From Escherichia coli (GTDB taxonomy: Bacteria; Pseudomonadota; Gammaproteobacteria; Enterobacterales; Enterobacteriaceae): DNA of 64,000 nucleotides. A program made the position numbers and the translations under genes. Below the pieces are notes generated by a model. The model saw only the letters and a list, made by a program, of their open reading frames with translations. It made no database searches and had not been told where the DNA came from. The DNA lies in NCBI RefSeq assembly GCF_013315695.1, contig NZ_CP054353.1; one strand, written 5' to 3'. Positions within the stretch are counted from its first letter, which is position 1. The number at the start of each line of letters is the position of its first letter. Of this stretch, positions 1,983-57,441 are shown piece after piece.

Positions 1983-1983
1983 T

Positions 1984-3462: not shown

Positions 3463-3491
3463 ATGGCTATCCCCGTAAGGTCGTGCGCATT

Positions 3492-3535
3492 TTCCCCCTC
3501 ACCCTAACCCTCTCCCCAGGGGGCGAGGGGACTGA
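3492..3535. repeat. REP-like imperfect palindromic extragenic element (tcccc..gagggga)
   Basis: Intergenic C/G-rich imperfect palindrome after wzxC; produces the spurious PLTLTLSPGGEG ORF typical of such repeats. Confidence 0.4.
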
Positions 3536-3623
3536 TCGAGCACAGCTTTGAATATGTCACCGGTTTAACTCTTAATCATCAACCATAGCACCGACGCAAT
3601 TTAGAACTCCTTTTGAGGTCATA

Positions 3624-36205: not shown

Positions 36206-37633
36206 TTAGACAATCTCTTGCGCGTACTGCCAAAGCGCTTTTAACAGCGCCACTTTCTCTTTGTCATCGGCATACTGTTGTGCCAGCATCTGCAATTCAT
36301 CAGCGTAGCCCTGCAAAAACTCTGGCGTGAAGACCTGGCGGCGGTGCTCAAGCCAGCGTTGCTGCTCGGCATAATCCAGCGTCCCCGGGAAGTTGCGCGC
36401 TCGATAATTGAACAACAGTTTTTCAATTCGTTTATCAACAAAAGTGATATCCAGTGCCGGTAAATTACGCGGCTCGGTTTCCAGCACAATTTTCATTGCT
36501 GCACGATCGGCGTCACTGAAAAAGCCATTATAAAGCTGTGCATCCACGTTATCTGAAGGCGTAAACGGTTCGGCTTCCGCGAATATCGCCACCACTTTTT
36601 CACGCACTTGCGGATTTTCACGCAGAATTTTTAGGTTATCGAGGCAATGCTGACGATTAATTCCCAGTCGGTCGGCATCTTCCGGGCGTAGCGTATTCGC
36701 CTGGGCCAGTACCGGACATTTATTGATATGCACCAGCTTAACCGGAACGGCGGCGTTATCGCCAAGATCGGCTCTTGCGGTATATAAACGCTCGCGCAAT
36801 GTGTCGCTATCCAGCTCCAGTAATGGCGAAATGTCTCCTGCCAAATCCACCATAATTACGGCATTGCGATTTTCAGGATGCCACGCCAGCGGTGCCACCC
36901 AGCTGGTATTGCCGCGCCATGCCCCAAACATTCCGGAAACGTGAACCAGGGGTTTCATCTGCGGAACATCAATCAACGCCATCAGTTTGTGTTTATTACG
37001 ATGGGTAAAGAGATAATCAAACAGGCGTGGCTGACGCGTTTTTACCAGTTTCGCCATCGCAATAGTGGCGTACACATCAGCCATCGCATCGTGGGCGTTG
37101 CTATGTTCAATACCATTCGCTTTGGTTAAATGCTCAAGGCGAAAGCTCGGTAGACCGTCATCATTTTCAGGCCAGTTTATTCCTTCCGGGCGTAGGGCAT
37201 AACAGGCACGCATAACATCCAGTAAATCCCAGCGCGAGTTATCATGCTGCCAGCTCCAGGCGTAAGGATCGTAGAAATTACGATAAAAAACGTTGCGTGT
37301 GACTTCGTCGTCGAAACGCACATTGTTGTAGCCCAGAATACAGGTCTTCGGTACGGTAAAAAGCGAGTGAATACGGGCGGCAAATGCGGCTTCGTTTTCT
37401 CCTTTCGCCCGAGCTTCCTGCGGGGTAATACCGGTAATTAATACTGCTCCAGGCTGGGGTAAATAGTCATCCGCGGGCTTGCAGTAAAAGACTTCGGGTT
37501 CGCCGATGACATTGAATTCGCTATCGGTGCGAATGGCTGCGAACTGTGCAGGGCGATCTAACGCGGGGTGCGTGCCAAAGGTTTCGTAATCGTGAAACAA
37601 AAAGGTAGATTGTTGCTTACCGTCATTCATCAT
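36206..37633 (-). CDS. sbcB: exodeoxyribonuclease I
   Basis: ORF 36206..37681; internal ATG gives MMNDGKQQSTFLFHDYETFG (475 aa), DEDDh exonuclease. Confidence 0.95.
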   Translation of the reverse strand: MMNDGKQQSTFLFHDYETFGTHPALDRPAQFAAIRTDSEFNVIGEPEVFYCKPADDYLPQPGAVLITGITPQEARAKGENEAAFAARIHSLFTVPKTCILGYNNVRFDDEVTRNVFYRNFYDPYAWSWQHDNSRWDLLDVMRACYALRPEGINWPENDDGLPSFRLEHLTKANGIEHSNAHDAMADVYATIAMAKLVKTRQPRLFDYLFTHRNKHKLMALIDVPQMKPLVHVSGMFGAWRGNTSWVAPLAWHPENRNAVIMVDLAGDISPLLELDSDTLRERLYTARADLGDNAAVPVKLVHINKCPVLAQANTLRPEDADRLGINRQHCLDNLKILRENPQVREKVVAIFAEAEPFTPSDNVDAQLYNGFFSDADRAAMKIVLETEPRNLPALDITFVDKRIEKLLFNYRARNFPGTLDYAEQQRWLEHRRQVFTPEFLQGYADELQMLAQQYADDKEKVALLKALWQYAQEIV

Positions 37634-37835
37634 TAGGTTAAATCCGTTGTTTCTGCTGTCTGCCAGAGTATCAAATATCACCGTGCTAATCAGCTTTAGC
37701 GCGACAATTTGGCAGCGAGTGGCAACAGATCATGTCAGATAAAAATGAGAGGGTAGTCACATTTTCTTGCACTTTATTCCAGCCAGTTCATAAGTATTTC
37801 CGTAAAAAGAACAGCTATTTGAAACTCCTGAGGGT

Positions 37836-39008
37836 TTGCTGTTGAAACGCCGTCTTATTATTGCTGCTTCTTTGTTCGTTTTTAATTTATCGTCTGGTTT
37901 TGCGGCGGAAAACATTCCTTTTTCACCTCAACCTCCAGAGATTCATGCCGGGTCCTGGGTATTGATGGATTACACCACCGGTCAGATTCTCACCGCGGGT
38001 AATGAGCATCAACAGCGCAATCCCGCCAGCCTGACAAAGCTGATGACGGGCTATGTCGTGGATCGCGCTATCGATAGTCATCGCATTACGCCAGACGATA
38101 TTGTCACCGTGGGGCGTGATGCGTGGGCGAAAGATAATCCGGTGTTTGTCGGTTCTTCACTGATGTTTTTGAAAGAGGGCGATCGCGTATCGGTACGTGA
38201 TTTAAGCCGTGGTTTAATTGTGGATTCCGGAAATGACGCTTGTGTTGCACTGGCTGACTATATTGCCGGTGGGCAACGGCAGTTTGTTGAAATGATGAAC
38301 AACTATGCCGAGAAGCTGCATCTCAAGGATACGCATTTTGAAACAGTGCATGGTCTGGATGCACCTGGCCAGCATAGCTCGGCTTATGATTTAGCTGTGC
38401 TTTCTCGCGCTATCATCCACGGCGAGCCCGAGTTTTATCATATGTACAGTGAGAAAAGCCTCACCTGGAACGGTATCACCCAGCAAAACCGTAACGGGTT
38501 ATTGTGGGATAAAACCATGAATGTTGACGGCCTGAAAACGGGTCATACTTCTGGTGCCGGGTTTAATCTCATTGCTTCGGCTGTAGATGGGCAGCGTCGT
38601 CTCATTGCAGTGGTAATGGGGGCTGACAGCGCAAAAGGTCGTGAGGAAGAGGCAAGAAAATTACTGCGTTGGGGTCAACAAAACTTTACTACGGTGCAAA
38701 TTTTGCACCGTGGGAAAAAGGTTGGTACGGAACGCATCTGGTATGGCGATAAAGAAAATATCGCCCTGGGAACGGAACAAGAGTTCTGGATGGTGCTACC
38801 GAAAGCCGAAATTCCACATATCAAAGCCAAATATACCCTTGATGGTAAAGAACTCACCGCGCCAATTAGCGCCCATCAGCGGGTAGGGGAAATTGAACTT
38901 TACGACCGTGATAAACAGGTGGCGCACTGGCCGCTGGTTACCCTGGAATCTGTCGGGGAAGGCAGCATGTTTTCCCGGCTGAGTGATTATTTCCACCATA
39001 AGGACTGA
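37836..39008 (+). CDS. dacD: D-alanyl-D-alanine carboxypeptidase (PBP6b)
   Basis: 390-aa ORF with TTG start; signal peptide; SLTK (SxxK) active-site motif. Confidence 0.9.
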   Translation: MLLKRRLIIAASLFVFNLSSGFAAENIPFSPQPPEIHAGSWVLMDYTTGQILTAGNEHQQRNPASLTKLMTGYVVDRAIDSHRITPDDIVTVGRDAWAKDNPVFVGSSLMFLKEGDRVSVRDLSRGLIVDSGNDACVALADYIAGGQRQFVEMMNNYAEKLHLKDTHFETVHGLDAPGQHSSAYDLAVLSRAIIHGEPEFYHMYSEKSLTWNGITQQNRNGLLWDKTMNVDGLKTGHTSGAGFNLIASAVDGQRRLIAVVMGADSAKGREEEARKLLRWGQQNFTTVQILHRGKKVGTERIWYGDKENIALGTEQEFWMVLPKAEIPHIKAKYTLDGKELTAPISAHQRVGEIELYDRDKQVAHWPLVTLESVGEGSMFSRLSDYFHHKD

Positions 39009-39092
39009 CCTTTCTTTTGCAGCAGACTGGCAGGAGTGCGAGTCTGCTCGCATAATCAACACTCATTCCTTGTGGTTTTAATATTGCAACTA

Positions 39093-39106
39093 TACTGTAT
39101 ATAAAA
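39093..39106 (+). promoter_or_regulatory. left half of a split LexA box (TACTGT + spacer ATATAAAA) with the overlapping candidate sbmC promoter -10 TATACT
   Basis: Joined to 40992..41005 it reconstitutes TACTGTATATAAAAACAGTA (CTGT-N8-ACAG). Confidence 0.7.
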
Positions 39107-39205
39107 GGGTCTTCCCCTGTTGTGGTGGGTGGTACATAATTGAGTGATTTTCAAACACCACACAGTACCTTTATGGTGTCTCTTTTTACATGAGAGGGAA
39201 TTCTT

Positions 39206-39724
39206 ATGAGTGTGCCGCAAACAAAAGCTGAACTGCTTTTAGCTATTGATAAAAATTTTAGTAAATTAATTAGTTACCTCAACACAATCCCACCAGAAAT
39301 TACTTCAGATAAATCAATGGACGGACACGCCAAAGGAACGGAGATGAGTGTTCGTGATCTCGTTTCGTATCTGCTTGGATGGAATGCTCTTGTTGTAAAG
39401 TGGATCGCTTCTGATGCTAAAGGTCTGCCTGTCGATTTTCCGGAAACTGGCTATAAATGGAATCAGCTTGGCCTTCTTGCTCAAAAATTTTACTCAGATT
39501 ACAGTGAGTTAAGTTATGAGTTGTTAGTAGCTGAACTTCAGACTGTAAAAAATGAGATTGTGAACCTTATTAATGATCGTACCGATGATATTTTGTATGG
39601 AAGACCATGGTACACAAAATGGACGATGGGGAGAATGATCTCATTTAACACATCTTCGCCTTACGCCAACGCTAATGGAAGATTAAGAAAGTGGGCAAAA
39701 AATAATAATATCAGTTTAAAGTAA
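39206..39724 (+). CDS. ClbS/DfsB-like (DUF1706) protein, putative colibactin/DNA-damage self-protection protein; passenger gene of the ISL3 element
   Basis: 172-aa ORF with good RBS (gagaggga); shares with remembered ClbS the motifs HAKGT, VSYLxGW, LGxLAQKFY, YGxPWYxKWTxGRMIxFNTxSPYxNAxGRL. Confidence 0.6.
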   Translation: MSVPQTKAELLLAIDKNFSKLISYLNTIPPEITSDKSMDGHAKGTEMSVRDLVSYLLGWNALVVKWIASDAKGLPVDFPETGYKWNQLGLLAQKFYSDYSELSYELLVAELQTVKNEIVNLINDRTDDILYGRPWYTKWTMGRMISFNTSSPYANANGRLRKWAKNNNISLK

Positions 39725-39742
39725 GCTTCAGAATGAAATTAT

Positions 39743-40963
39743 ATGGACGAAAAATCCCTCTATGCCCATATCCTTAACCTGACTGCACCATGGCAGGTTA
39801 AATCCCTTACCCTCGATGAAAATGCAGGTTCCGTTACTGTTACAGTCGGAATTGCTGAAAATACTCAGTTAACCTGTCCGACCTGCAGGAAATCCTGTTC
39901 TGTTCACGATCACCGACATCGTAAATGGCGCCACCTTGATACCTGCCAGTTCATGACATTAGTAGAAGCCGATGTTCCCCGCGTTATGTGCCCGGAGCAT
40001 GGCTGCCAGACTCTGCCTGTACCGTGGGCAGGTTCCGGCAGTCGGTACACTCTGCTGTTCGAATCGTTCGTGCTCTCATGGCTTAAAATCAGCACCGTTG
40101 ATGCGGTCAGAAAACAACTTAAACTTAGCTGGAATGCCGTTGACGGCATCATGACCCGCGCGGTTAAGCGAGGCCTGTCGCGGATTAAAAAGCCTTTATC
40201 AGTGCGTCATATGAATGTAGACGAAGTCGCCTTTAAAAAAGGGCATAGGTATATAACCGTGGTATCTGATCGCGACGGGCGGGCACTGGCATTAACCGAT
40301 GATCGTGGCACAGAGAGTCTTGCCAGCTATCTCCGTTCGCTTACTGACAGTCAGTTGTTGGCCATCAAAACACTGTCGATGGACATGAATGCGGGCTATA
40401 TAAGAGCAGCGCGTATCCATTTACCCAATGCGGTCGAGAAAATCGCCTTCGATCGCTTCCATGTGGCGAAGCAACTGGGCGAAGTGGTTGATAAAACCCG
40501 CCAGAATGAACATCCGCACCTCCCTGTTGAAAGTCGTCGTCAGGCCAAAGGTACCCGCTTCCTGTGGCAGTACAGCGACAAATGGATGACTGAGTCCCGG
40601 CAGGAAAAGCTGATGTGGTTGCGGGAACAGATGCAACAGACAAGCCAGTGCTGGACACTGAAAGAGCTGGCAAAAAATATCTGGGATCGCCCCTGGAGCA
40701 CAGAACGCAGGAATGACTGGTTGCAGTGGATATCGCTGGCGTCTGAATGTGATGTGCCGATGATGAAAAACGCAGCGAAAACCATTAAAAAACGGTTATA
40801 CGGAATACTGAATGCAATGCGTCATCGCGTCTCGAATGGAAATGCGGAGGCGCTGAACAGCAAGATCAGACTGCTGAGGATAAAGGCCAGGGGATACCGA
40901 AACCGGGAACGCTTTAAACTGGGAGTTATGTTCCACTATGGGAAACTGAATATGGCGTACTGA
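39743..40963 (+). CDS. ISL3-family transposase
   Basis: 406-aa ORF; N-terminal Cys-rich zf-ISL3-like region ([14 protein letters not shown]) followed by a DDE_Tnp_ISL3-like domain; stop codon abuts the right inverted repeat. Confidence 0.85.
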
Positions 40964-40991
40964 GTCTTCCCACCATGATCGGGGAAGACCC

Positions 40992-41005
40992 ATATAAAAA
41001 CAGTA
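40992..41005 (+). promoter_or_regulatory. right half of the split LexA box (duplicated spacer ATATAAAA + ACAGTA) upstream of sbmC
   Basis: Sits 15 bp upstream of the sbmC ATG; see 39093..39106. Confidence 0.7.
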
Positions 41006-41019
41006 TTAATGGGGGCGTC

Positions 41020-41493
41020 ATGAACTACGAGATTAAGCAGGAAGATAAACGTACCGTTGCAGGTTTCCATCTCGTTGGCCCGTGGGAACAGACGGTAAAG
41101 AAAGGCTTTGAGCAGTTGATGATGTGGATAGATAGCAAAAATATTGTGCCGAAGGAGTGGGTTGCTGTCTATTACGACAATCCAGATGAAACACCCGCCG
41201 AAAAATTACGCTGCGACACCGTCGTGACGGTGCCGAATAACTTTACGCTCCCCGAAAACAGTGAGGGCGTCATTCTGACAGAAATTTCAGGTGGTCAGTA
41301 TGCGGTGGCGGTGGCTCGTGTAGTCGGTGATGATTTTGCTAAACCCTGGTATCAGTTCTTTAATAGCCTCTTGCAGGACAGTGCCTATGAAATGTTACCA
41401 AAGCCCTGCTTCGAGGTTTACTTGAACAATGGCGCGGAAGATGGGTACTGGGATATCGAAATGTATGTTGCGGTGCAGCCAAAACATCACTAA
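41020..41493 (+). CDS. sbmC: DNA gyrase inhibitor SbmC (GyrI)
   Basis: ORF 40975..41493; ATG at 41020 gives [24 protein letters not shown] (157 aa). Confidence 0.92.
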
Positions 41494-41690
41494 TTCATCT
41501 CAGGGCGGTGTGTTGACGCGAAGACCACTCTTTTTTTGAAAGCGAAAAGAGTAAGATGCGCCTTTCAAATTTTTCGCTCCTGCCGGGAAATTACACTGTT
41601 CCCGGTATGTCCGTCGGATAACTCAGAGGCGCGCCTTCTGGCCGACAGATGTGTTATGAGCGCTTTTAATCTTCATTACGGAGTTTCTGC

Positions 41691-42749
41691 GTGCGTGCCG
41701 ATAAGTCATTAAGCCCGTTTGAAATCCGGGTATACCGCCATTACCGCATTGTGCATGGTACTCGGGTCGCGCTGGCATTCCTGCTCACTTTTCTCATTAT
41801 CCGCCTGTTTACTATCCCGGAAAGCACCTGGCCGCTGGTCACCATGGTGGTGATTATGGGGCCAATCTCGTTCTGGGGGAACGTTGTCCCTCGTGCCTTC
41901 GAACGTATTGGCGGTACGGTGTTGGGTTCGATTTTAGGTCTTATCGCTCTGCAACTGGAGTTAATTTCGTTACCGCTGATGTTAGTCTGGTGCGCGGCGG
42001 CGATGTTTCTTTGCGGTTGGCTGGCGCTGGGCAAGAAACCGTATCAAGGATTATTGATTGGGGTGACGCTGGCAATTGTTGTGGGTTCCCCGACAGGTGA
42101 AATTGATACGGCGTTATGGCGAAGCGGCGATGTGATCCTCGGCTCTTTACTGGCAATGTTGTTTACCGGTATCTGGCCACAACGGGCGTTCATCCACTGG
42201 CGCATTCAACTGGCGAAAAGTCTGACCGAGTATAATCGGGTCTATCAATCTGCATTCTCACCGAACTTACTCGAACGCCCACGTCTGGAAAGCCATCTAC
42301 AAAAACTGCTGACCGATGCCGTGAAAATGCGTGGGCTGATTGCGCCCGCCAGCAAAGAAACCCGTATTCCCAAATCGATATATGAAGGTATCCAGACCAT
42401 TAATCGCAATCTGGTTTGTATGCTGGAGTTGCAAATCAATGCATACTGGGCCACGCGCCCCAGCCATTTCGTGTTATTGAACGCGCAAAAACTTCGTGAT
42501 ACCCAGCACATGATGCAGCAAATACTGCTGAGCCTTGTTCATGCGCTGTACGAAGGTAATCCGCAGCCGGTTTTTTCCAATACGGAAAAATTGAACGATG
42601 CTGTGGAAGAGCTGCGTCAGTTGCTCGATAACCACCATGACCTGAAAGTCGTGGAAACACCAATCTATGGTTATGTGTGGCTGAACATGGAAACGGCACA
42701 TCAGCTTGAGTTGCTATCGAATCTGATTTGCCGGGCCTTGCGCAAATAA
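41691..42749 (+). CDS. yeeA: FUSC-family inner membrane protein YeeA
   Basis: 352-aa membrane ORF; synteny sbmC-yeeA-yeeX. Confidence 0.85.
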   Translation: MRADKSLSPFEIRVYRHYRIVHGTRVALAFLLTFLIIRLFTIPESTWPLVTMVVIMGPISFWGNVVPRAFERIGGTVLGSILGLIALQLELISLPLMLVWCAAAMFLCGWLALGKKPYQGLLIGVTLAIVVGSPTGEIDTALWRSGDVILGSLLAMLFTGIWPQRAFIHWRIQLAKSLTEYNRVYQSAFSPNLLERPRLESHLQKLLTDAVKMRGLIAPASKETRIPKSIYEGIQTINRNLVCMLELQINAYWATRPSHFVLLNAQKLRDTQHMMQQILLSLVHALYEGNPQPVFSNTEKLNDAVEELRQLLDNHHDLKVVETPIYGYVWLNMETAHQLELLSNLICRALRK

Positions 42750-42920
42750 TTCCTGAACTTCAGAATCATCTTGCTGCTGCTTCGATTCAGCAAGGATAAA
42801 GGGTATGATAGTGAAAAGGGATAAAAGCATTGTCATCTGCGGCAGCTATGAGTAATGTTGGCCCTAACGAATAGCGGTTGCTTAAACGAATCCGACTCTC
42901 ACATTATCAGGGGTATAAAA

Positions 42921-43250
42921 ATGGAAACTACCAAGCCTTCATTCCAGGACGTACTGGAATTTGTTCGTCTGTTCCGTCGTAAGAACAAACTGCAACGTGA
43001 AATTCAGGACGTTGAGAAAAAGATCCGTGACAACCAGAAGCGCGTCCTGTTGCTGGACAACCTGAGCGATTACATCAAGCCAGGGATGAGCGTTGAAGCA
43101 ATCCAGGGCATCATCGCCAGCATGAAAGGTGACTATGAAGATCGCGTTGACGATTACATCATCAAAAATGCCGAGCTCTCCAAAGAACGCCGCGATATCT
43201 CCAAAAAGCTGAAAGCTATGGGCGAAATGAAAAACGGCGAAGCGAAGTAA
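42921..43250 (+). CDS. yeeX: UPF0265/DUF496 protein YeeX
   Basis: ORF 42855..43250; internal Met gives [28 protein letters not shown] (109 aa). Confidence 0.9.
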
Positions 43251-43263
43251 TTCCCGTTTTATT

Positions 43264-43292
43264 CAATGAGGGTTGCCCGGCAACCCTCATTG
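43264..43292. terminator. 12-bp-stem hairpin after yeeX (no clear U-tract)
   Basis: caatgagggttg-cccgg-caaccctcattg perfect inverted repeat 14 bp after the yeeX stop. Confidence 0.4.
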
Positions 43293-43350
43293 CTCATTGA
43301 TTCTTATCTGTGTATCACCGTCATCATTCTCATCTGAGAACCAATCGAAA

Positions 43351-43575
43351 TTAACAACAGCCTTCTTCTGTATGCAGCAAGGCAAAAAGTTCTGTAACTC
43401 CATTGTTATTAACTGCACTGGTTACTAACACGTTGTGCGCTCCAGCTTCCCGTAACCAACTTTTCACCAAAGATATTTGTTCCATGCTGGCTAAATCTGC
43501 TTTGGTTACTACTCCAATGACCGGGTGATTCATGGCCCGGTAGGGCGTTTTTACCTCTAATTCCTGCTTCAGCGC
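43351..43575 (-). pseudogene. 3' remnant of a small EutP/PduV-family GTPase gene (G4 TKxD and G5 SA motifs only)
   Basis: Minus-strand ORF C-terminus ..NHPVIGVVTKADLASMEQISLVKSWLREAGAHNVLVTSAVNNNGVTELFALL; the upstream part of the ORF call is antisense to an IS66 fragment and not credible. Confidence 0.35.
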
Positions 43576-43589
43576 TGAGATTCCTGCTT

Positions 43590-43733
43590 GTTGCCGGAAA
43601 AGCAGGCACCTGCCGTCTGAACGGTATCGATCCGGAAGCGTATCTGCGCCATATTCTGAGCATACTGCCGGAATGGCCCTCCAACCGTGTTGACGAACTC
43701 CTGCCATGGAACGTAGTTCTCACCAATAAATAA
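43590..43733 (+). mobile_element. IS66-family transposase C-terminal fragment
   Basis: Translates to ..AGKAGTCRLNGIDPEAYLRHILSILPEWPSNRVDELLPWNVVLTNK*, the conserved C-terminal motif of IS66-family TnpC; no intact upstream ORF. Confidence 0.55.
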
Positions 43734-44147
43734 GCGTCAATACGGTGCTCCGTTGACGCTTACTTTAATCCGTTTTCTGAGCTTAGATTTTTCTGTTCCT
43801 ACCCAGACCGTGGATTTGGAATTCATTTTTTGTCAGGTCAATGCTAATCGTTAAAACGGCCATAACGCACCTCCACTGGAAGGTTTATCAGTAATATCCT
43901 ACCGTTGCTTCATGGTCGGGGCGTCCATTCCATTATTATCGGTTTTCCTTTCTGTTTATAAATGAAAACGCCAGCTGTATTCAGGCTGGCGTCAGGGGAA
44001 ATGAAGCCTGTTGAGTGAGATTCACCGGTTCTGGTGCAGAAGCTGCAGATGGCGCAGGGTAAGGACATCTTCTCTTGCCTGCTTAATACAGGACAACAGT
44101 GCTGTTTCTGTGGTTAATGGCACTATACCCTGTATCACTGCATTGTC

Positions 44148-44342
44148 TTACAGCAACTGGTGAGGGCTGGCATAAGTTGCCGGTGTTTCGGTAGAGTCAC
44201 GGCCATCCACCACGCGGAGTGAATAACCGTTTTCAGCGGCCTTATTAATCAGTTCAGTGATATTAACACCATCAATGTCAACGACAATGTGCCCCATATC
44301 CAGCGCCTGTACGTTAACGCTGTCGGCTTCCAGTGTCATCAT
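44148..44342 (-). CDS. yeeW: CP4-44-type prophage protein YeeW
   Basis: 64-aa ORF overlapping the cbtA stop; matches remembered YeeW. Confidence 0.7.
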   Translation of the reverse strand: MMTLEADSVNVQALDMGHIVVDIDGVNITELINKAAENGYSLRVVDGRDSTETPATYASPHQLL

Positions 44343-44713
44343 TTCGCCTCCGGATACTTACCCAGGGTAATGTTATTTACCGTTCTGTAATTGTCGCGGG
44401 TCATCAGGCCGGTCGCCCTGCGAGCCCGGAGGATATCGATGCTGTTTATTAACTGAGAGCGGGTACAGGCGCTGAATCCCGGCTGGTCGGTACGCACCAG
44501 CGCGTATTTTTCCACGAGAAAGTTCACCGCATCACACAGTGAAATGCCTGCCTCAATATGCTGCTCAATCACACGTTCATCGGCAAACGGTGTGTCATTC
44601 AGTGTGAGGCCGTAGTGCTGGTCCAGCAGTCGGGACAGCAGTATCTGCCAGATTTCAACAGGAGACGGGCGAGAACTGGCCGCCTGCCCGGGTAATACAG
44701 GTAATGTTTTCAT
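44339..44713 (-). CDS. cbtA: CbtA toxin (cytoskeleton-binding toxin, YeeV family)
   Basis: 124-aa ORF MKTLPVLPGQAASSRPSPVEIWQILLSRLLDQHYGLTLNDTPFADE.. matches remembered CbtA. Confidence 0.92.
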   Translation of the reverse strand: MKTLPVLPGQAASSRPSPVEIWQILLSRLLDQHYGLTLNDTPFADERVIEQHIEAGISLCDAVNFLVEKYALVRTDQPGFSACTRSQLINSIDILRARRATGLMTRDNYRTVNNITLGKYPEAK

Positions 44714-44801
44714 ACTGAAGATTTTCCTGATATGCAGATATAAAAATGGGAAAGTGGCGTGGTGAAAACACCAGGCCGTAGCAGAAGGCTATTCTGGAGA
44801 G

Positions 44802-45170
44802 TTAATTTTTCATTTCGGGCGTCGGATAAACAGCCAGATAAACGTAACCACAACTGCTGAGGGTATCGGCTTCACAGGCCAGCCCCTTCGCATACAGCGT
44901 GACGGTATGCTGAGTGCGGGGATTCAGTTCACCGCTGGTGAGCATGAGTTCCAGTTGTTTCATCAGCAGCGGAAAGGCCTGGTCCAGGGGGTACGCATCT
45001 GCATCGCTGGACAGGCCTCTGATACCGGCGCGGTCGGCAAGGTAATGCAACCGGTTACCCTCCTGCACCAGACGTGCCCCGAAACAGGGCGTCACGGTGC
45101 AGGGCAGCCCCCACTAGGGGCGGTCGTGATTGTCGTCGGGAAGTGTTGTCCCGGGGAGTGTGTCTGACAC
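44802..45170 (-). pseudogene. cbeA: CbeA (YeeU) antitoxin gene with premature amber codon at codon 19
   Basis: From GTG 45170: VSDTLPGTTLPDDNHDRP-TAG-WGLPCTVTPCFGARLVQEG..; TAG at 45114..45116 where I remember Trp in K-12; longest ORF 44802..45095 would need internal GTG reinitiation. Confidence 0.8.
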
Positions 45171-45243
45171 GATAAAATCCTTACAGAAAATCGGTTAAGA
45201 ATGGTCCGGTGGTGGCGATAATTCTGCTCATCAGAATTCCCAC

Positions 45244-45465
45244 TCAGTTCAGGGTGACGCTCATCAGTCGGACATACGGGCCAAAACTGTCCTTACGGCG
45301 TTCAGCAAACACGGCCAGCACACCGGGAATATCCTGCACTTCACGACCGGTATACGCTTCAGCACTGCCGTGCCAGCGGTATTTACCGGTACAGAACGGA
45401 AAAAGACGGGATGTCGGATGTTGTTGGTGAATACGCATGGCTTCACCACGGGTGATAATTTTCAT
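45244..45465 (-). CDS. yeeT: DUF987 protein YeeT
   Basis: 73-aa ORF MKIITRGEAMRIHQQHPTSRLFPFCTGKYRWHG.. Confidence 0.85.
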   Translation of the reverse strand: MKIITRGEAMRIHQQHPTSRLFPFCTGKYRWHGSAEAYTGREVQDIPGVLAVFAERRKDSFGPYVRLMSVTLN

Positions 45466-45527
45466 AATGGGATACCTCTGAAGACAGAAGATAAAAGTGA
45501 AAACAGGTGTGATGTGGTTGTGACGGG

Positions 45528-45974
45528 TTAAAGCAGACCATGTTCGGCAAAGGAGAAAACCTGGCTGCCACCGACTATCAGATGGTCCGGCACCCGGATA
45601 TCCACCAGGCCCAGTGCCTGTACCAGACGTTCCGTGATAAGGCGGTCTGCCTTGCTGGGTGTGACTTCACCGGACGGGTGATTGTGTGCCAGCACCACGG
45701 CAGCGGCATTGTGGTACAGGGCGCGTTTAATCACTTCCCGGGGATGGACTTCCGTGCGGTTGATGGTGCCGGTGAAGAGGGTTTCACCGGCAATCAGCTG
45801 ATTCTGGTTATTCAGATACAGCACCCGGAATTCTTCACGCTCCAGTCCCGCCATGTTCAGAATCAGCCATTCCCGTGCCGCACGGGTGGAGGTGAAGGCC
45901 ACGCCGGGTTCATGAAGATGGCGGTCCAGGGTTTTCAGGGCCCGCTGAATGAGGCTGCGCTCGCCGGGCGTCAT
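45528..45974 (-). CDS. yeeS: RadC-like JAB-domain protein YeeS (start uncertain; alternative starts at 46004 and 46019)
   Basis: ORF 45528..46019 with HNHPSG JAMM-like motif. Confidence 0.8.
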   Translation of the reverse strand: MTPGERSLIQRALKTLDRHLHEPGVAFTSTRAAREWLILNMAGLEREEFRVLYLNNQNQLIAGETLFTGTINRTEVHPREVIKRALYHNAAAVVLAHNHPSGEVTPSKADRLITERLVQALGLVDIRVPDHLIVGGSQVFSFAEHGLL

Positions 45975-46019
45975 CTCTCCGGGCAGAAAGGAAAGCTGCT
46001 GCATTGTCCCTGCCTCCAT

Positions 46020-46484
46020 TCAGTCGATGATGCGCATAATGGCGCTGCATTCCGGATGCTGCAGGGCATAATCCCGCAGCCGGTAATAATGAACCGTCAT
46101 GGCATAATTCTCTGTACGACAGGCGTGATGGCTGTACGCCATCAGACAGGCGGCAATGCCGGCGGCTTCCGGGCTCATTTCAGCGCGGTTACCGTTCATG
46201 ACGTTAAACAGCACCCATGTTTCGTCATCATCGTCATCCGGTTCGGGTGCCATAAATGCGCCACCGTTGTTCAGGGTGTACAGATTCCAGATACCACCGC
46301 AGTAGTCTTCATACAGACGGTCCATCCAGCCGAAGACCCGGGGCTCCAGGGTCACCCACTGTGGAATGAGGCCAAAATGCTGCGGCCAGAAGCTGATGCG
46401 CTGTTCATCAGGGACTATGGTGGCAACCAGTTGTTGCAGGCCAGTCTCCGGTGCACAGGCCGAAGAGGTGGTGTTCTGAGACAA
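46020..46484 (-). CDS. antirestriction protein (KlcA/ArdB-like); 5' end abuts the IS element, N-terminus possibly altered
   Basis: 154-aa ORF with TTG start only 5 nt from the IS right end; acidic DDDDDE stretch; position equivalent to yfjX/yafX-type genes in CP4-family prophages. Confidence 0.65.
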   Translation of the reverse strand: MSQNTTSSACAPETGLQQLVATIVPDEQRISFWPQHFGLIPQWVTLEPRVFGWMDRLYEDYCGGIWNLYTLNNGGAFMAPEPDDDDDETWVLFNVMNGNRAEMSPEAAGIAACLMAYSHHACRTENYAMTVHYYRLRDYALQHPECSAIMRIID

Positions 46485-46496
46485 TGTTTGTAGTGG

Positions 46497-47747
<1,251 letters not shown>

Positions 47748-50547: not shown

Positions 50548-51627
50548 ATGCAAATACTTGCCGATTTACTGAATACGATCCCAGCCATCAATTCTGCCGC
50601 TATGTCGCGTGCACAACGGCATGTTGACGGGTTACTCAAACCTGTTGGTAGCCTGGGAAAGCTGGAGGCGCTTGCCATACAACTGGCAGGAATGCCGGGG
50701 TTGAATGGCATACCGCATGTGGGCAAAAAAGCAGTACTGGTTATGTGTGCCGATCACGGCGTCTGGGAGGAAGGGGTCGCTATTTCTCCAAAAGAAGTGA
50801 CAGCCATACAGGCTGAAAATATGACCCGTGGAACAACCGGCGTGTGTGTGCTGGCAGCACAAGCGGGCGCTAACGTCCACGTAATTGATGTTGGTATTGA
50901 TACTGCTGAGCCTATCCCCGGGCTTATCAACATGCGTGTCGCACGAGGTAGCGGCAATATTGCTTCAGCTCCGGCAATGAGTCGCCGTCAGGCTGAAAAG
51001 TTGCTTTTGGACGTCATATGTTATACGCGGGAGCTGGCAAAAAACGGTGTCACGCTGTTTGGTGTAGGTGAACTGGGGATGGCAAACACGACACCGGCAG
51101 CGGCAATAGTCAGCACAATCACTGGCCGGGATCCTGAAGAAGTGGTTGGGATTGGCGCAAACCTGCCGACAGATAAACTGGCTAATAAAATTGATGTTGT
51201 GCGTCGGGCGATTACGTTGAATCAACCAAATCCTCAGGATGGTGTTGATGTCCTGGCAAAAGTGGGTGGATTTGATTTGGTCGGAATAGCTGGAGTGATG
51301 TTAGGTGCTGCTTCCTGCGGTTTACCCGTGTTGCTGGATGGATTTCTTTCTTATGCTGCTGCGCTCGCAGCCTGCCAGATGTCTCCTGCAATCAAACCGT
51401 ATCTCATTCCTTCTCACTTGTCGGCAGAAAAAGGCGCGCGTATAGCGCTCTCGCATTTGGGGCTGGAGCCTTATCTCAATATGGATATGCGTTTAGGTGA
51501 GGGGAGTGGTGCAGCTCTGGCGATGTCCATCATCGAAGCTGCTTGTGCGATATACAACAACATGGGCGAACTTGCTGCCAGTAATATTGTTCTACCGGGG
51601 AATACGACTTCTGATTTGAACAGCTAA
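50548..51627 (+). CDS. cobT: nicotinate-nucleotide--dimethylbenzimidazole phosphoribosyltransferase
   Basis: 359-aa ORF following cobS. Confidence 0.93.
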
Positions 51628-51691
51628 AAACGAAAAGTCTGATAAAAGCTATACTTATCGGATAGTATTCGCGACTTAGGAAAGGGACATG

Positions 51692-52624
51692 ATGCGTCGT
51701 GTAAATATTCTTTGCTCATTTGCTCTGCTTTTTGCCAGCCAAAATAGCCTGGCGGTAACTTATCCATTACCTCCAGAGGGTAGCCGTTTAGTGGGGCAGT
51801 CGCTTACTGTAACTGTTCCTGATCACAATACTCAGCCGCTGGAGACTTTTGCCGCACAATACGGGCAAGGGTTAAGTAATATGCTGGAAGCGAATCCGGG
51901 CGCTGATGTTTTTTTGCCGAAGCCTGGCTCACAACTCACCATTCCGCAGCAACTGATTTTGCCCGCCACTGTTCGTAAAGGGATTGTGGTTAACGTCGCT
52001 GAAATGCGTCTTTATTACTATCCGCCAGACAGTAATACAGTGGAAGTCTTTCCTATTGGTATCGGCCAGGCTGGGCGAGAAACCCCGCGTAACTGGGTGA
52101 CTACCGTTGAACGTAAACAAGAAGCACCAACCTGGACGCCAACGCCGAACACCCGGCGCGAATATGCGAAACGAGGGGAGAGTTTGCCCGCATTTGTTCC
52201 TGCGGGGCCCGATAACCCCATGGGGCTGTACGCGATTTATATTGGCAAGTTGTATGCCATCCACGGTACCAATGCCAATTTTGGTATTGGGCTCCGTGTA
52301 AGTCAGGGCTGTATTCGTCTGCGTAATGACGATATCAAATATCTGTTTGATAATGTTCCTGTAGGCACTCGTGTACAAATTATTGATCAGCCAGTGAAAT
52401 ACACAACGGAACCGGATGGTTCAAAGTGGCTGGAAGTTCATGAGCCGCTGTCGCGCAATCGTGCAGAATATGAGTCTGACCGAAAAGTGCCATTGCCGGT
52501 AACCCCATCTTTGCGGGCGTTTATCAACGGGCAAGAAGTTGATGTAAATCGCGCAAATGCTGCGTTGCAACATCGATCGGGAATGCCTGTGCAAATTAGT
52601 TCTGGTTCAAGACAGATGTTTTAA
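51692..52624 (+). CDS. ldtA: L,D-transpeptidase (ErfK/LdtA)
   Basis: ORF 51689..52624; [16 protein letters not shown] signal peptide; YkuD-domain. Confidence 0.9.
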
Positions 52625-52649
52625 GAGCGTTGGTAATTAGAAAGTAAAA

Positions 52650-52675
52650 AGCCTGCTCGAAAGCAGGCTTTTTTG
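52650..52675. terminator. bidirectional terminator between ldtA and tRNA-Asn
   Basis: agcctgct-cgaa-agcaggct hairpin flanked by an A-run and a T6 run. Confidence 0.8.
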
Positions 52676-52679
52676 AATT

Positions 52680-52755
52680 TGGCTCCTCTGACTGGACTCG
52701 AACCAGTGACATACGGATTAACAGTCCGCCGTTCTACCGACTGAACTACAGAGGA
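52680..52755 (-). tRNA. asnV: tRNA-Asn (GUU)
   Basis: 76-nt reverse complement of TCCTCTGTAGTTCAGTCGGTAGAACGGCGGACTGTTAATCCGTATGTCACTGGTTCGAGTCCAGTCAGAGGAGCCA; anticodon loop CUGUUAA; symbol by K-12 synteny. Confidence 0.95.
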
Positions 52756-53081
52756 ATCGTGTGAACGGGGCGCATATTAATGGCAGTGCATGGTGATGTC
52801 AAAGGGTGAAATGCATTTTTTTGTTTGTTTGCTGACAATTTCAACAAAGTGGTGAGCTTTCAATCTTATTGGGTAATGAACCATCGTGGTGCATACCCCC
52901 CTTTTATAGGGCAGGTGAATGCGACTGCTGATAAAAAGGGCCAATGACGAATCTATCATAATCTCTTATTTGACAGTTGGTTAGCTTGCGCATCAACGCT
53001 AAAATAGAACTGGCAAGCATCTTGCATTCTGGTTGTAAGTAATGGCGGCACTTGGGCCGATTCTTAAAAACCGGAGGCAAC

Positions 53082-53999
53082 ATGAACTTCAGACGCCTGA
53101 AATACTTCGTAAAAATTGTAGATATTGGTAGCCTGACCCAGGCTGCTGAAGTATTGCATATCGCACAACCAGCGCTCAGCCAGCAGGTTGCCACACTGGA
53201 AGGTGAGTTAAATCAACAGCTTTTGATTCGCACAAAACGGGGCGTTACGCCAACAGGCGCCGGAAAAATTCTCTATACCCATGCACGGGCCATTTTACGT
53301 CAGTGTGAGCAGGCCCAACTGGCGGTGCATAACGTTGGTCAGTCATTATCGGGGCAAGTCTCGATTGGCTTTGCGCCAGGAACCGCTGCGTCATCCATCA
53401 CCATGCCCTTATTACAGGCGGTTCGCGCTGAATTCCCGGAGGTCGTTATCTATCTTCATGAAAATAGTGGTGCAGTGCTTAACGAAAAACTGATAAATCA
53501 CCAACTCGATATGGCGGTGATTTATGAGCATTCCCCTGTGGCTGGGGTATCCAGTCAGGCTTTGCTGAAAGAAGATCTTTTCCTGGTAGGAACTCAAGAT
53601 TGCCCGGGGCAAAGCGTTGATGTTAATGCTATTGCGCAAATGAACCTTTTTCTCCCCAGTGATTACAGCGCTGTTAGACTTCGTGTTGATGAGGCTTTTT
53701 CCCTACGGCGGCTCACGGCAAAAGTCATTGGTGAAATTGAGTCTATTGCCACGCTTACTGCAGCGATTGCCAGCGGCATGGGCGTTGCAGTATTACCTGA
53801 ATCGGCTGCGCGTTCGTTATGTGGCGCAGTAAATGGGTGGATGTCACGCATTACCACTCCTTCAATGAGTCTCTCTTTGTCCTTAAATTTACCCGCCAGA
53901 GCAAACTTGTCACCACAGGCACAGGCAGTGAAAGAGTTGTTAATGTCAGTGATTAGTTCTCCAGTGATGGAAAAAAGGCAGTGGCAATTGGTGAGCTAA
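53082..53999 (+). CDS. nac: nitrogen assimilation control protein (LysR family)
   Basis: ORF 53052..53999; ATG at 53082 gives MNFRRLKYFVKIVDIGSLTQAAEVLHIAQPALSQQV. Confidence 0.92.
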   Translation: MNFRRLKYFVKIVDIGSLTQAAEVLHIAQPALSQQVATLEGELNQQLLIRTKRGVTPTGAGKILYTHARAILRQCEQAQLAVHNVGQSLSGQVSIGFAPGTAASSITMPLLQAVRAEFPEVVIYLHENSGAVLNEKLINHQLDMAVIYEHSPVAGVSSQALLKEDLFLVGTQDCPGQSVDVNAIAQMNLFLPSDYSAVRLRVDEAFSLRRLTAKVIGEIESIATLTAAIASGMGVAVLPESAARSLCGAVNGWMSRITTPSMSLSLSLNLPARANLSPQAQAVKELLMSVISSPVMEKRQWQLVS

Positions 54000-54100
54000 G
54001 CGTTATATCGGGATGGAATAAGATGCGGGTTTTTATTATTTGTTATGCCGGGCATTAGACTTTAACAATAACGGGATATCTGAACTGCCCGGAGTTTACC

Positions 54101-55051
54101 GTGAATTTCCAACAACTAAAGATAATCCGCGAGGCTGCACGTCAGGATTACAACCTGACAGAGGTTGCGAATATGCTTTTTACCTCACAGTCAGGCGTTA
54201 GCCGTCATATTCGGGAACTGGAGGATGAACTTGGCATCGAAATATTTGTTCGACGAGGTAAGCGACTGCTGGGCATGACTGAACCGGGCAAAGCATTACT
54301 GGTCATTGCAGAACGCATTCTGAATGAAGCCAGTAATGTTCGTCGGCTCGCAGACCTGTTTACCAACGATACGTCTGGCGTTCTCACTATTGCAACGACG
54401 CATACTCAGGCACGTTATAGCTTGCCTGAGGTCATTAAAGCTTTTCGCGAACTTTTCCCGGAGGTTCGGCTGGAGCTAATCCAGGGTACACCACAGGAAA
54501 TTGCGACGTTGTTGCAAAATGGCGAAGCTGATATTGGTATCGCCAGCGAGCGTTTGAGTAATGACCCGCAGCTCGTCGCCTTCCCGTGGTTTCGTTGGCA
54601 CCATAGTTTGCTTGTTCCACTCGATCATCCCTTGACGCAAATTACACCGTTGACGCTGGAATCAATAGCGAAGTGGCCGTTAATTACTTACCGACAGGGA
54701 ATTACGGGGCGCTCACGCATTGATGACGCATTTGCCCGCAAAGGTTTGCCGGCAGATATTGTATTAAGTGCACAGGATTCTGCTGTCATTAAAACCTATG
54801 TTGCTCTTGGGCTTGGGATCGGATTAGTTGCCGAACAATCCAGCGGCGAACAAGAGGAAAAGAATTTAATCCGCCTGGATACGCGGCATCTTTTCGATGC
54901 TAATACTGTCTGGTTGGGACTGAAGCGAGGGCAACTTCAGCGTAACTATGTCTGGCGCTTTCTGGAACTTTGTAATGCAGGACTGTCAGTTGAGGATATC
55001 AAGCGCCAGGTGATGGAAAACAGTGAAGAGGAAATTGATTATCAGATATAG
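54101..55051 (+). CDS. cbl: CysB-like LysR-family regulator Cbl
   Basis: 316-aa ORF MNFQQLKIIREAARQDYNLTEVANMLFTSQSGVSRHIRELE. Confidence 0.92.
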   Translation: MNFQQLKIIREAARQDYNLTEVANMLFTSQSGVSRHIRELEDELGIEIFVRRGKRLLGMTEPGKALLVIAERILNEASNVRRLADLFTNDTSGVLTIATTHTQARYSLPEVIKAFRELFPEVRLELIQGTPQEIATLLQNGEADIGIASERLSNDPQLVAFPWFRWHHSLLVPLDHPLTQITPLTLESIAKWPLITYRQGITGRSRIDDAFARKGLPADIVLSAQDSAVIKTYVALGLGIGLVAEQSSGEQEEKNLIRLDTRHLFDANTVWLGLKRGQLQRNYVWRFLELCNAGLSVEDIKRQVMENSEEEIDYQI

Positions 55052-55054
55052 CAA

Positions 55055-55080
55055 AAAGCCCGCTATAAAAGCGGGCTTTT
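55055..55080. terminator. bidirectional terminator between cbl and tRNA-Asn
   Basis: aagcccgc-tataaa-gcgggctttt hairpin. Confidence 0.75.
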
Positions 55081-55088
55081 CAGAAATT

Positions 55089-55164
55089 TGGCTCCTCTGA
55101 CTGGACTCGAACCAGTGACATACGGATTAACAGTCCGCCGTTCTACCGACTGAACTACAGAGGA
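55089..55164 (-). tRNA. asnU: tRNA-Asn (GUU)
   Basis: Identical 76-nt tRNA-Asn sequence on the minus strand. Confidence 0.95.
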
Positions 55165-55324
55165 ATCGCTGTTGAGGCACATCTTAACGGCGAAAAATAT
55201 TTTGTCAAACCCGATTTTTAAATTTCCCAACTGTTTGCCGTTTCTATCAACAGTTTGTTGCATTTGCAGACAATTTGTTGGCGAAAATCTTTGCAGCTTT
55301 GCTGATTCTCCCTCATCATTTGAA

Positions 55325-56812
55325 ATGTGGTTTCACTTTCTGCAATTAAGGTCGGCTTTGAATATCTCCTCTGCTTTACGCCAGGTTGTTCACGGCACTC
55401 GCTGGCACTCTAAACGCAAGAGCTACAAAGTGTTGTTCTGGCGCGAGATAACCCCGCTTGCTGTTCCTATCTTCATGGAGAACGCCTGTGTCCTGTTGAT
55501 GGGGGTCCTGAGCACTTTTCTGGTCAGCTGGCTGGGAAAAGATGCGATGGCCGGCGTGGGGTTGGCGGACAGCTTCAATATGGTCATTATGGCTTTTTTT
55601 GCAGCTATCGATCTTGGTACTACTGTCGTTGTAGCATTTAGTCTCGGTAAGCGAGATCGACGACGAGCGAGGGTGGGGACGCGGCAGTCATTGGTGATCA
55701 TGACGTTGTTTGCCGTACTGTTGGCAACGCTAATTCATCATTTTGGCGAACAAATTATTGATTTCGTCGCGGGTGATGCCACGACAGACGTTAAAGCACT
55801 GGCGTTGACTTATCTGGAGCTGACCGTACTCAGTTATCCAGCAGCTGCCATCACTCTTATTGGTAGCGGGGCACTTCGTGGTGCAGGGAATACGAAAATA
55901 CCGCTACTGATTAACGGTAGCCTGAATATTCTTAATATTATTATTAGCGGCATATTGATTTACGGCCTTTTCTCCTGGCCGGGACTGGGATTTGTCGGGG
56001 CTGGGTTGGGTTTAACCATTTCTCGTTATATTGGCGCAGTTGCAATTTTGTGGGTGCTGGCGATTGGTTTTAATCCTGCGCTAAGGATTTCATTAAAGAG
56101 CTATTTTAAACCGCTGAATTTTAGCATTATCTGGGAAGTCATGGGGATTGGTATTCCAGCGAGTGTCGAATCAGTGCTATTTACCAGTGGTCGGTTATTA
56201 ACCCAAATGTTCGTTGCCGGGATGGGGACCAGCGTTATTGCCGGAAATTTTATCGCGTTTTCAATTGCGGCTCTTATCAACTTACCCGGAAGTGCGCTCG
56301 GTTCTGCTTCTACGATCATTACAGGCCGAAGGTTGGGGGTAGGGCAGATAGCGCAAGCAGAGATTCAGTTGCGGCATGTGTTCTGGCTGTCCACTCTTGG
56401 ATTAACGGCCATCGCCTGGCTAACGGCTCCCTTTGCCGGGGTTATGGCATCGTTTTACACCCAGGATCCACAGGTTAAACACGTCGTTGTGATTCTGATT
56501 TGGCTAAATGCTTTATTTATGCCTATTTGGTCCGCCTCATGGGTGCTACCCGCTGGATTTAAGGGTGCTCGTGATGCCCGTTACGCCATGTGGGTTTCTA
56601 TGTTGAGCATGTGGGGTTGCCGGGTTGTAGTCGGTTATGTGCTGGGAATCATGCTTGGCTGGGGTGTGGTTGGTGTCTGGATGGGAATGTTTGCCGACTG
56701 GGCTGTGCGGGCCGTGCTGTTTTACTGGCGAATGGTTACTGGACGTTGGCTGTGGAAATACCCTCGACCCGAGCCGCAAAAGTGTGAAAAAAAGCCAGTT
56801 GTGTCGGAATAA
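55325..56812 (+). CDS. yeeO: MATE-family efflux transporter YeeO
   Basis: ORF 55172..56812; ATG at 55325 gives MWFHFLQLRSALNISSALRQVVHG (495 aa); 12-TM MATE. Confidence 0.9.
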   Translation: MWFHFLQLRSALNISSALRQVVHGTRWHSKRKSYKVLFWREITPLAVPIFMENACVLLMGVLSTFLVSWLGKDAMAGVGLADSFNMVIMAFFAAIDLGTTVVVAFSLGKRDRRRARVGTRQSLVIMTLFAVLLATLIHHFGEQIIDFVAGDATTDVKALALTYLELTVLSYPAAAITLIGSGALRGAGNTKIPLLINGSLNILNIIISGILIYGLFSWPGLGFVGAGLGLTISRYIGAVAILWVLAIGFNPALRISLKSYFKPLNFSIIWEVMGIGIPASVESVLFTSGRLLTQMFVAGMGTSVIAGNFIAFSIAALINLPGSALGSASTIITGRRLGVGQIAQAEIQLRHVFWLSTLGLTAIAWLTAPFAGVMASFYTQDPQVKHVVVILIWLNALFMPIWSASWVLPAGFKGARDARYAMWVSMLSMWGCRVVVGYVLGIMLGWGVVGVWMGMFADWAVRAVLFYWRMVTGRWLWKYPRPEPQKCEKKPVVSE

Positions 56813-56912
56813 ACGACAAAGTGCAGATTATTTCAGCAAACGATTTCAAATTTAAAAAACAGGCTTTGACATTGTGGATGGGCATCGCTAATATTCGCCT
56901 CGTTCTCACGAT

Positions 56913-56988
56913 TCCTCTGTAGTTCAGTCGGTAGAACGGCGGACTGTTAATCCGTATGTCACTGGTTCGAGTCCAGTCAGAGGAGCCA
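56913..56988 (+). tRNA. asnW: tRNA-Asn (GUU)
   Basis: TCCTCTGTAGTTCAGTCGGTAGAACGGCGGACTGTTAATCCGTATGTCACTGGTTCGAGTCCAGTCAGAGGAGCCA on the plus strand. Confidence 0.95.
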
Positions 56989-57441
56989 AATTTTAGTTTT
57001 GAGACATCTCTATGAGTCTCAGGACAGTTAAAAAATAAAAATTATTTTTACCCGGTCACTTTGTAAAAAAGTGGCCGGGTTTTTGATTTCTGTGTTTCGT
57101 GCGCTTAATCGAGTCTCACGCTTCAGTGAGCAAATTGCCCCTCCCCAACAGACATCACGATTCACAAGGTCAAAAATTCTGTTCCATGAAGTACCGTACA
57201 AAGATAAAGAGAAAAATGCCTTATGCGGGATGTAGCTGTCGCGTCTTTATCGGGAAACTATACGTAATTGCCACTTTGTCTTCGGTAATCAGAAAAAGAA
57301 GACCTGCCATTTTAATAAATATTATTTCTCTGGGAACGGGGATTTTTTATAAGCAATATGACGAGTTAAACATTATATTTTTATAAGGATTATATGAGAT
57401 TAAAGAAATCTGCCATAAAGACAGATTTCTTTAACATATAA

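Follow-up and report, generated by a model that had tools for sequence, protein, structure and literature searches.

Insertion at a short recurring motif and in a fixed register is familiar from Tn7 at attTn7 and from insertion sequence (IS) elements in repetitive extragenic palindromic (REP) sequences or integron attC sites. The element described here differs from these in that its motif is the operator of the global repressor LexA. It is ISEc53, an ISL3-family IS carrying a clbS-like passenger gene, which we found splitting the LexA operator of sbmC in a stretch of 64,000 nucleotides of Escherichia coli DNA (contig NZ_CP054353.1; this whole stretch is referred to as the window, and coordinates are collected in Table 1). 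The gene, the structure of its protein and the IS unit are all already known, and RefSeq names both genes. Mäklin et al. (2025; bioRxiv 10.1101/2025.11.17.686825) described a 'clbS-like transposon' made up of a clbS-like (dfsB, DUF1706) gene and a single ISL3 transposase, present on chromosomes and on pUTI89-like plasmids, in sequence types (ST) ST131, ST69 and ST95, and also in isolates positive for pks, the colibactin island. The same work reports that about 225 of 522 DNA sites differ between clbS and clbS-like, and notes a subclade of ST95 that lacks pks and has clbS-like on the chromosome. Their unit was said to lie 'near otherwise unrelated genes', whereas here the neighbours are SOS genes and the point of insertion is a LexA operator.

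Two other ISL3 elements, ISKox3 and ISCfr12, resemble ISEc53 in sharing the ends GGGTCTTCCC…GGGGAAGACCC, a transposase about 85% identical at the DNA level, the 8-bp duplication and the LexA-box target. They differ from it in being 1,316 bp long and having no passenger. Accordingly, ISKox3 has about 45 nt between its left repeat and the transposase start, and ISEc53 has about 620 nt there, with the clbS-like gene. Searches of the full-text literature, which covered neither subscription journals nor the ISfinder and TnCentral databases, found no report linking ISL3 elements, ISKox3 or ISEc53 to LexA or SOS boxes, and the literature on the box sequences themselves yielded only lists of LexA motifs. 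The targeting of LexA operators by ISEc53, ISKox3 and ISCfr12 is apparently unreported.

The inverted repeats of ISEc53 are 23 bp long and imperfect, the first 11 nucleotides matching perfectly and about 19 of the 23 overall. Strain N44 provides the empty site, where an uninterrupted CTATACTGTATATAAAAACAGTATTAATGGGGGCGTCATG leads into sbmC and TACTGTATATAAAAACAGTA is continuous; this 20-mer is the sbmC LexA motif given in Table 4 of PMC3009722. In the window the operator is split at its exact centre (CTGT-ATATAAAA-ACAG), the duplicated 8 bp being the spacer, and neither junction retains CTGT-N8-ACAG, so that the insertion would destroy LexA control at this operator. The empty site, the repeats and the duplication together show that the IS carries the clbS-like gene as a passenger, placed between its left repeat and its transposase gene. 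Identical 1,885-bp copies, each with the passenger and with differing 8-bp duplications, were found in at least seven genome contexts, among them sbmC, dinD, symE, umuDC, a plasmid dinI-umuDC operon and an IS3-family element. The transposase, apparently intact, scored 328.3 bits against a cutoff of 180 for NF033550 (E=6e-98), and the Pfam domains Zn_ribbon_ISL3, HTH_Tnp_ISL3 and DDE_Tnp_ISL3 were found on the transposase of identical ISEc53 copies; ISEc53 would move by this DDE transposase, generating the 8-bp duplications. Taking all of this together, we are confident that the best explanation of 39107-40991 is an ISEc53 with a captured clbS-like passenger that targeted, and thereby split, the LexA operator of sbmC.

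The right end of ISEc53 lies 29 bp before the start of sbmC, whose upstream region is now cut off by the IS and directed into it. The clbS-like gene, the transposase gene and sbmC share one orientation, downstream of that former sbmC upstream region. The clbS-like gene may thus be transcribed from the captured leader, from the former sbmC promoter without LexA control, or from both, and sbmC may be transcribed by read-through. Read by eye, the leader may hold a native promoter (TTCAAA-16-TATGGT), which we can only infer because a sigma-70 consensus scan of 38950-41100 flagged no convincing promoter there. A terminator scan of the same region found none on the plus strand inside ISEc53.

The occupied sites in other genomes have the same structure as that at sbmC. 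They read CTGT ATGTATAT ACAG in the plasmid dinI-umuDC operon, CTGT ATTAATGT ACAG at the chromosomal umuDC next to dinI, CTGT ATATAAAC ACAG at dinD and CTGG ATATATCA TCAG at symE. The site within an IS3-family element reads CTGT ATTTGTCT CCAG, which we take to be the published dinS box. For an unselected set of flanks, metagenome, genome and viral contigs were searched with the IS-end sequence alone, and only left flanks were counted. The scan of genome contigs with the IS end gave three loci and an exact search with one ISKox3 transposase variant gave two contigs, so the numbers come from the metagenome and viral scans. CTGT stood at positions -12 to -9 in 28 of 32 distinct left flanks of ISEc53 and in 18 of 19 distinct 16-mers of ISKox3, the remaining one having CTGG. 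For the two elements together this makes 46 of 51 distinct flanks with CTGT in register, where the background frequency of CTGT is 0.42% (0.0042); the binomial tail is 7e-104. In the consensus of the flanks, (T)ACTGTATATATAT, a LexA half-box precedes its AT-rich spacer, and right flanks, where present, show the duplication and then ACAG, occasionally ACAT, CCAG or TCAG.

The genes starting beside these boxes encode UmuD-like proteins (three further loci), DNA polymerase IV (DinB), a pore-forming colicin, DinI, SbmC, DinD and SymE, and the occupied boxes agree with the published LexA motifs of sbmC, umuD and dinD (PMC3009722). ISEc53 was found in both orientations at the sbmC, dinD and plasmid umuDC boxes, which argues for repeated independent events and for the lack of an orientation constraint. 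In the chromosome of E. coli strain 1000, ISKox3 (2434-3749 of the fetched stretch) splits the umuDC operator with the target-site duplication ATATAAAA, and one ISCfr12 copy splits the umuD operator on the Citrobacter plasmid pOZ172. The CTGT and the following 8 bp are not part of the IS itself, given that the 8 bp vary by site and that empty sites hold a single CTGT-N8-ACAG. ISEc53, ISKox3 and ISCfr12 insert into the 8-bp spacer of LexA operators and duplicate exactly that spacer.

Several observations run counter to a strict rule of this kind. The insertion in fimB of ST131 (1512-3396 of one fetched stretch) is an ISEc53 with the clbS-like passenger, and its site (ATGG-ATATATAT-ACAC) is only near-cognate; compared with the intact fimB of K-12, the duplication is only 5 bp (TATAT). 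Two metagenomic ISEc53 flanks have CGGT and GTGA in place of CTGT. In some metagenome and viral contigs the left and right IS flanks derive from different loci, for example a dinS-type left flank with a fimB right flank, which most likely reflects chimeric assembly across a repeated element. Also, some operators are represented among the distinct flanks by more than one sequence variant, so that the independent loci number fewer than 51, though still several dozen. Near iutA, a decayed and more divergent relative lies outside any LexA box. The targeting of LexA operators is highly specific, and it is not absolute.

A register fixed to the base is not explained by selection alone, and the transposase complex must therefore choose the site. 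How it does so can be read in two ways. We lean, by a modest degree, towards a transposase that reads the palindrome directly: half-sites arranged as a palindrome would be expected if a transposase dimer recognised them directly, the transposase has only the standard ISL3 domains, and the near-cognate fimB site lies inside a coding sequence not known to bind LexA. Perhaps, and here we are distinctly more doubtful, the transposase docks instead on operator-bound LexA without reading the DNA, a tethered targeting that would couple transposition to the SOS state. The flank consensus does mirror the LexA motif in full, down to the TA that precedes CTGT and the alternation of A and T in the spacer; the sites with an identifiable neighbour all belong to known or plausible SOS genes, and weaker natural boxes such as that of symE (CTGG…TCAG) are used as well. 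However, a transposase with its own evolved sequence preference would look alike, and the presence of the full LexA motif is compatible with both readings.

Table 1. Features of the ISEc53 insertion and its surroundings (positions in the window).
Feature	Position	Strand	Basis
dacD, left chromosomal neighbour	37842..39008	+	annotation of NZ_LR898874.1, list of open reading frames
Left half of the split sbmC LexA operator, TACTGT	39093..39098		N44 empty site, published motif
Left copy of the 8-bp target-site duplication, ATATAAAA (N8 spacer of the LexA box)	39099..39106		direct repeat
ISEc53, ISL3-family IS, 1,885 bp, one passenger gene	39107..40991	+	inverted repeats, identical copies elsewhere, RefSeq name
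Left inverted repeat, GGGTCTTCCCCTGTTGTGGTGGG	39107..39129	+	repeat pair, sequence reading
Leader captured with the passenger gene	39131..39205	+	alignment with Citrobacter freundii upstream region
clbS-like / EcDfsB gene, 172 aa, WP_000115885.1	39206..39724	+	profile, structure and alignment matches
ISL3-family DDE transposase, 406 aa, apparently intact	39743..40963	+	NF033550
Right inverted repeat, …CCCACCATGATCGGGGAAGACCC	40969..40991	-	repeat pair
Right copy of the 8-bp duplication, ATATAAAA	40992..40999		direct repeat
Right half of the split sbmC LexA operator, ACAGTA	41000..41005		N44 empty site, published motif
sbmC (gyrI), SOS-regulated DNA gyrase inhibitor	41020..41493	+	NF007451 (E=1e-90), annotation
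tRNA-Asn (asnW, beside yeeO), usual pks attachment site, unoccupied	56913..56988	+	tRNA call, annotation

The passenger gene begins with ATG, with a Shine-Dalgarno sequence (GAGGG) about 8 nt upstream. An earlier note on this DNA, made from the sequence alone, had assigned its product to the ClbS/DUF1706 family on the strength of shared motifs and had proposed that it was mobilised as IS cargo next to sbmC, and both proposals are borne out. The motifs HAKGT, VSYLLGW, LGLLAQKFY and YGRPWYTKWTMGRMISFNTSSPYANANGRL are all present, and the Pfam profile PF08020 (DUF1706) covers the protein over its full length (residues 1-165 against model positions 1-166 of 166, E=3.3e-54, 183.7 bits). In a comparison with solved structures the protein was 100% identical to chain 5COF_A over all 172 residues and matched the ClbS chain 6ANR with E=1e-55. 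The identity to 5COF_A carries with it the DinB-like four-helix-bundle fold described for that crystal structure (PMC4773401). Alignment with the ClbS of strain Nissle 1917 gave 89 identities in 166 residues (54%) with one single-residue gap, and the catalytic residue compared, Tyr55, is kept in a gap-free part of the alignment (LVSYLLGW versus LVSYLIGW in ClbS).

The protein thus shares with ClbS (WP_000290498; PDB 6ANR) its family, a near-equal length and Tyr55. The difference lies in the genetic setting: ClbS is encoded in the pks island beside clbQ, whereas the passenger sits inside ISEc53 between dacD and sbmC with neither clbQ nor an island integrase alongside. ClbS is a cyclopropane hydrolase for which Tyr55 is critical, and the Y55F protein gives cells no protection (bioRxiv 10.1101/431098). 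By this likeness the passenger is most likely a cytoplasmic colibactin-inactivating enzyme of the ClbS type. Its Tyr55 would hydrolyse the cyclopropane warhead of colibactin, and the protein would shield the DNA of its host from the colibactin of pks+ neighbours or, in pks+ strains, of the host itself.

Experimental work on related proteins is consistent with this. Silpe et al. (2022, PMC8907063) worked with the concept of orphan ClbS-like genes, resistance genes without the biosynthetic genes, which applies here too. All ten of the ClbS-like proteins from pks- bacteria that they assayed (27-80% identity to ClbS) were protective, blocking colibactin-induced SOS and prophage induction, and further ClbS homologues were likewise protective in a study of the honeybee gut (PMC12990990). 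WP_000115885.1 itself appears in Supplementary Table 1 of Silpe et al., and the proteins that they tested are relatives of it (about 78% and probably about 90% identical), not the same protein. A Dickeya dadantii cluster representative is 78% identical to the passenger protein, and a D. dadantii protein was among the tested set. The tested E. coli protein of 172 aa (52.41% identity and 180 bits against ClbS) fits a cluster 90% identical to that of the window. This tested protein, 'E. coli 69' (QDM73539), may be the 90%-identical variant, with which it agrees in length and in identity and bit score against ClbS. Their Escherichia albertii ClbS-like gene is chromosomal and in a conserved locus, whereas the gene in the window is borne by an IS.

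On the other side of the balance, the active-site comparison with ClbS covered the single residue Tyr55, and no experiment on WP_000115885.1 itself was found in the literature. The NCBIfam profiles returned no family for the protein, which we put down to a gap in that library and not to non-membership. Taylor et al. (2016, PMC4773401), who crystallised the identical protein of E. coli UTI89 as EcDfsB (PDB 5COF), read its fold as non-enzymatic and DfsB-related. On that interpretation, which is older than the ClbS hydrolase work, the passenger would be a DfsB-type 'sibling lethal factor', a bacteriocin precursor that is secreted and cleaved to a cationic helical peptide, and not a resistance enzyme. 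The protein does share the DfsB fold and the conserved basic and aromatic C-terminal helix (PMC4773401), and the Paenibacillus DfsB chain 5CIV was among its structure matches (E=8e-19). It is, however, far nearer to ClbS than to this DfsB, it retains the catalytic Tyr55, and no N-terminal signal peptide is visible by eye in MSVPQTKAELLLAIDKNF; Taylor et al. state that they lack evidence for DfsB-like processing of the E. coli protein (PMC4773401), and all ClbS-like proteins assayed so far protect against colibactin (PMC8907063, PMC12990990). We therefore consider a bacteriocin precursor quite improbable, and it ranks much less likely than colibactin inactivation.

Because the IS is targeted to LexA operators, the position of ISEc53 beside sbmC does not reflect a chance meeting of two protection genes. 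That it came about by chance, or by random insertion in AT-rich DNA followed by selection and with no real specificity for LexA operators, is hardly credible: ISL3-family elements are generally described as favouring AT-rich targets, selection might favour insertions by which SOS genes are derepressed or silenced, and the fimB site and two others are not LexA boxes, but selection for disrupting an operator would accept any position within about 20 bp, whereas the 46 sites share one exact register with a duplication equal to the N8 spacer and a binomial tail far beyond chance, the same register is seen for ISCfr12 and, on contigs of prophages and plasmids, for ISKox3, which has no cargo, and both orientations occur at the same box.

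The usual attachment site of the pks island, asnW, was said in the earlier note to be unoccupied, with yeeN about 450 bp away. It does sit between yeeO and yeeN with no insertion, and yeeN ends 454 bp off. The other asn tRNA genes of the window (52680-52755 and 55089-55164) are likewise unoccupied. In Nissle 1917 the same tRNA-Asn is followed by the island integrase and by clbS through clbA. Strain MSB1_4I (NZ_LR898874.1) and one further record match the window with 100% identity at 41500-64000 and 38700-41300, which allowed the rest of the chromosome to be considered. For this, 948 nt of clbR-clbA were appended to a 2.6-kb query of the locus, and the matching places per record were compared with and without the appendage. 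The number of places rose from 4 to 5 in the Nissle records and from 3 to 4 in those of ATCC 25922, and stayed at 3 in MSB1_4I and in OZ547117.1, which thus have no clbR-clbA on the chromosome. A pks island at another asn tRNA gene or elsewhere was considered and rejected, all three asn tRNA genes of the window being empty and the MSB1_4I chromosome lacking clbR-clbA. The strain is pks-negative, at least on the chromosome. The passenger lies outside a pks island, and for this reason we call it ClbS-like and not ClbS itself.

The description of the gene as an orphan needs to be divided. It is right for this strain, which has no pks on its chromosome, and wrong for the element: 39 of the 41 records in which the locus is at least 99.8% identical are pks+, so that within this lineage IS and island as a rule occur together, and both Nissle 1917 and ATCC 25922 carry the same insertion. 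Since ISEc53 is common in pks+ strains, protection from foreign colibactin cannot be its only benefit, which tempers the role proposed above for the passenger.

In Nissle 1917 (612000-690000 of its record) the segment asn-nac-cbl-asn-yeeO-asnW is inverted relative to window positions 51600-58000; the inversion is bounded by oppositely oriented asn tRNA genes, and as a result the asnW-attached pks island adjoins ldtA. Positions 1-29500 of the window hold colanic-acid genes, an O1-type O-antigen cluster (O1-family wzx and wzy) and the his operon, and the O1-type cluster indicates an O serogroup different from that of Nissle 1917 despite the identical dacD-IS-sbmC locus. Just right of the window, the pks-negative matching record has the yersiniabactin high-pathogenicity island (fyuA, ybtE, ybtT, ybtU and irp1; 36860-46501 of the fetched stretch), in which irp1 is annotated as frameshifted. 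Between 43350 and 48700, after tmaR (yeeX), there is a CP4-44-like remnant with yeeW, cbtA, a YeeU-family antitoxin gene, yeeT, yeeS and an antirestriction gene. An IS3-family element interrupts this remnant at about 46497-47674, and IS4 and cobalamin-gene fragments come after it; precisely this arrangement is shared by only three records.

As to the origin of the cargo, the chromosome of Citrobacter freundii has a homologue with an 88% identical protein in a conserved neighbourhood and without an IS. Its neighbours are DUF4310-4312 genes, a LysR regulator gene and a major facilitator superfamily (MFS) transporter gene. The homology to the ISEc53 cargo spans the 75 nt upstream of the gene that form the leader, and about 20 nt past the stop codon. 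This points to capture from an enterobacterial chromosome, and judging from the alignment the C. freundii-type gene is a candidate for the type of source. A variant of the clbS-like gene, with a protein 90% identical to that of the window, was found on E. coli contigs (at 2330-3120 of one fetched stretch) in a context resembling an integrative and conjugative element or a plasmid, with AcaB, topoisomerase and ParE-like genes. It stands after a left repeat like that of ISEc53 (GGGTCTTCCTCTGTTGT) and before a decayed remnant of the transposase start. It is an older copy of this kind of unit that has lost its mobility, and may correspond to the 'ClbS-like 2' or 'E. coli 69' type.

The cargo is widespread. 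The exact protein WP_000115885.1 is present on at least 1,000 contigs, and the cargo segment occurs in 674 of 5,426 complete E. coli genomes, at 937 places (677 chromosomal and 260 on plasmids). It also occurs in 215 plasmid records, of which 199 are conjugative; pUTI89 is among these records, at 100% identity. For ISKox3 the count is 1,676 plasmid records, most of which are conjugative.

Taken alone, the clbS-like finding adds one more strain and shows the insertion in Nissle 1917 and ATCC 25922. LexA targeting, by contrast, explains the landing sites of the colibactin-resistance unit, including the dinI-umuDC operator on pUTI89-like plasmids. Each insertion destroys a LexA operator and parts an SOS gene from its upstream region, and carriers may show altered expression of translesion polymerases, SbmC, DinD or colicins; those possibly affected include widely used strains and, with ISKox3, many resistance plasmids. 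A short, portable and specific target of a one-protein DDE transposase is also of interest for the study of target choice, and possibly as a tool. We propose, tentatively and as no better than a possibility on present evidence, that ISEc53, ISKox3 and ISCfr12 use LexA operators, possibly through bound LexA, as landing pads from which they rewire SOS promoters and spread on plasmids and prophages. If this is true, the promoters rewired would be those of umuDC, dinB, sbmC, dinD and colicins, the SOS boxes on conjugative plasmids and prophages would serve as routes between cells, and an anti-genotoxin gene would be travelling on a vehicle addressed to the DNA-damage regulon.

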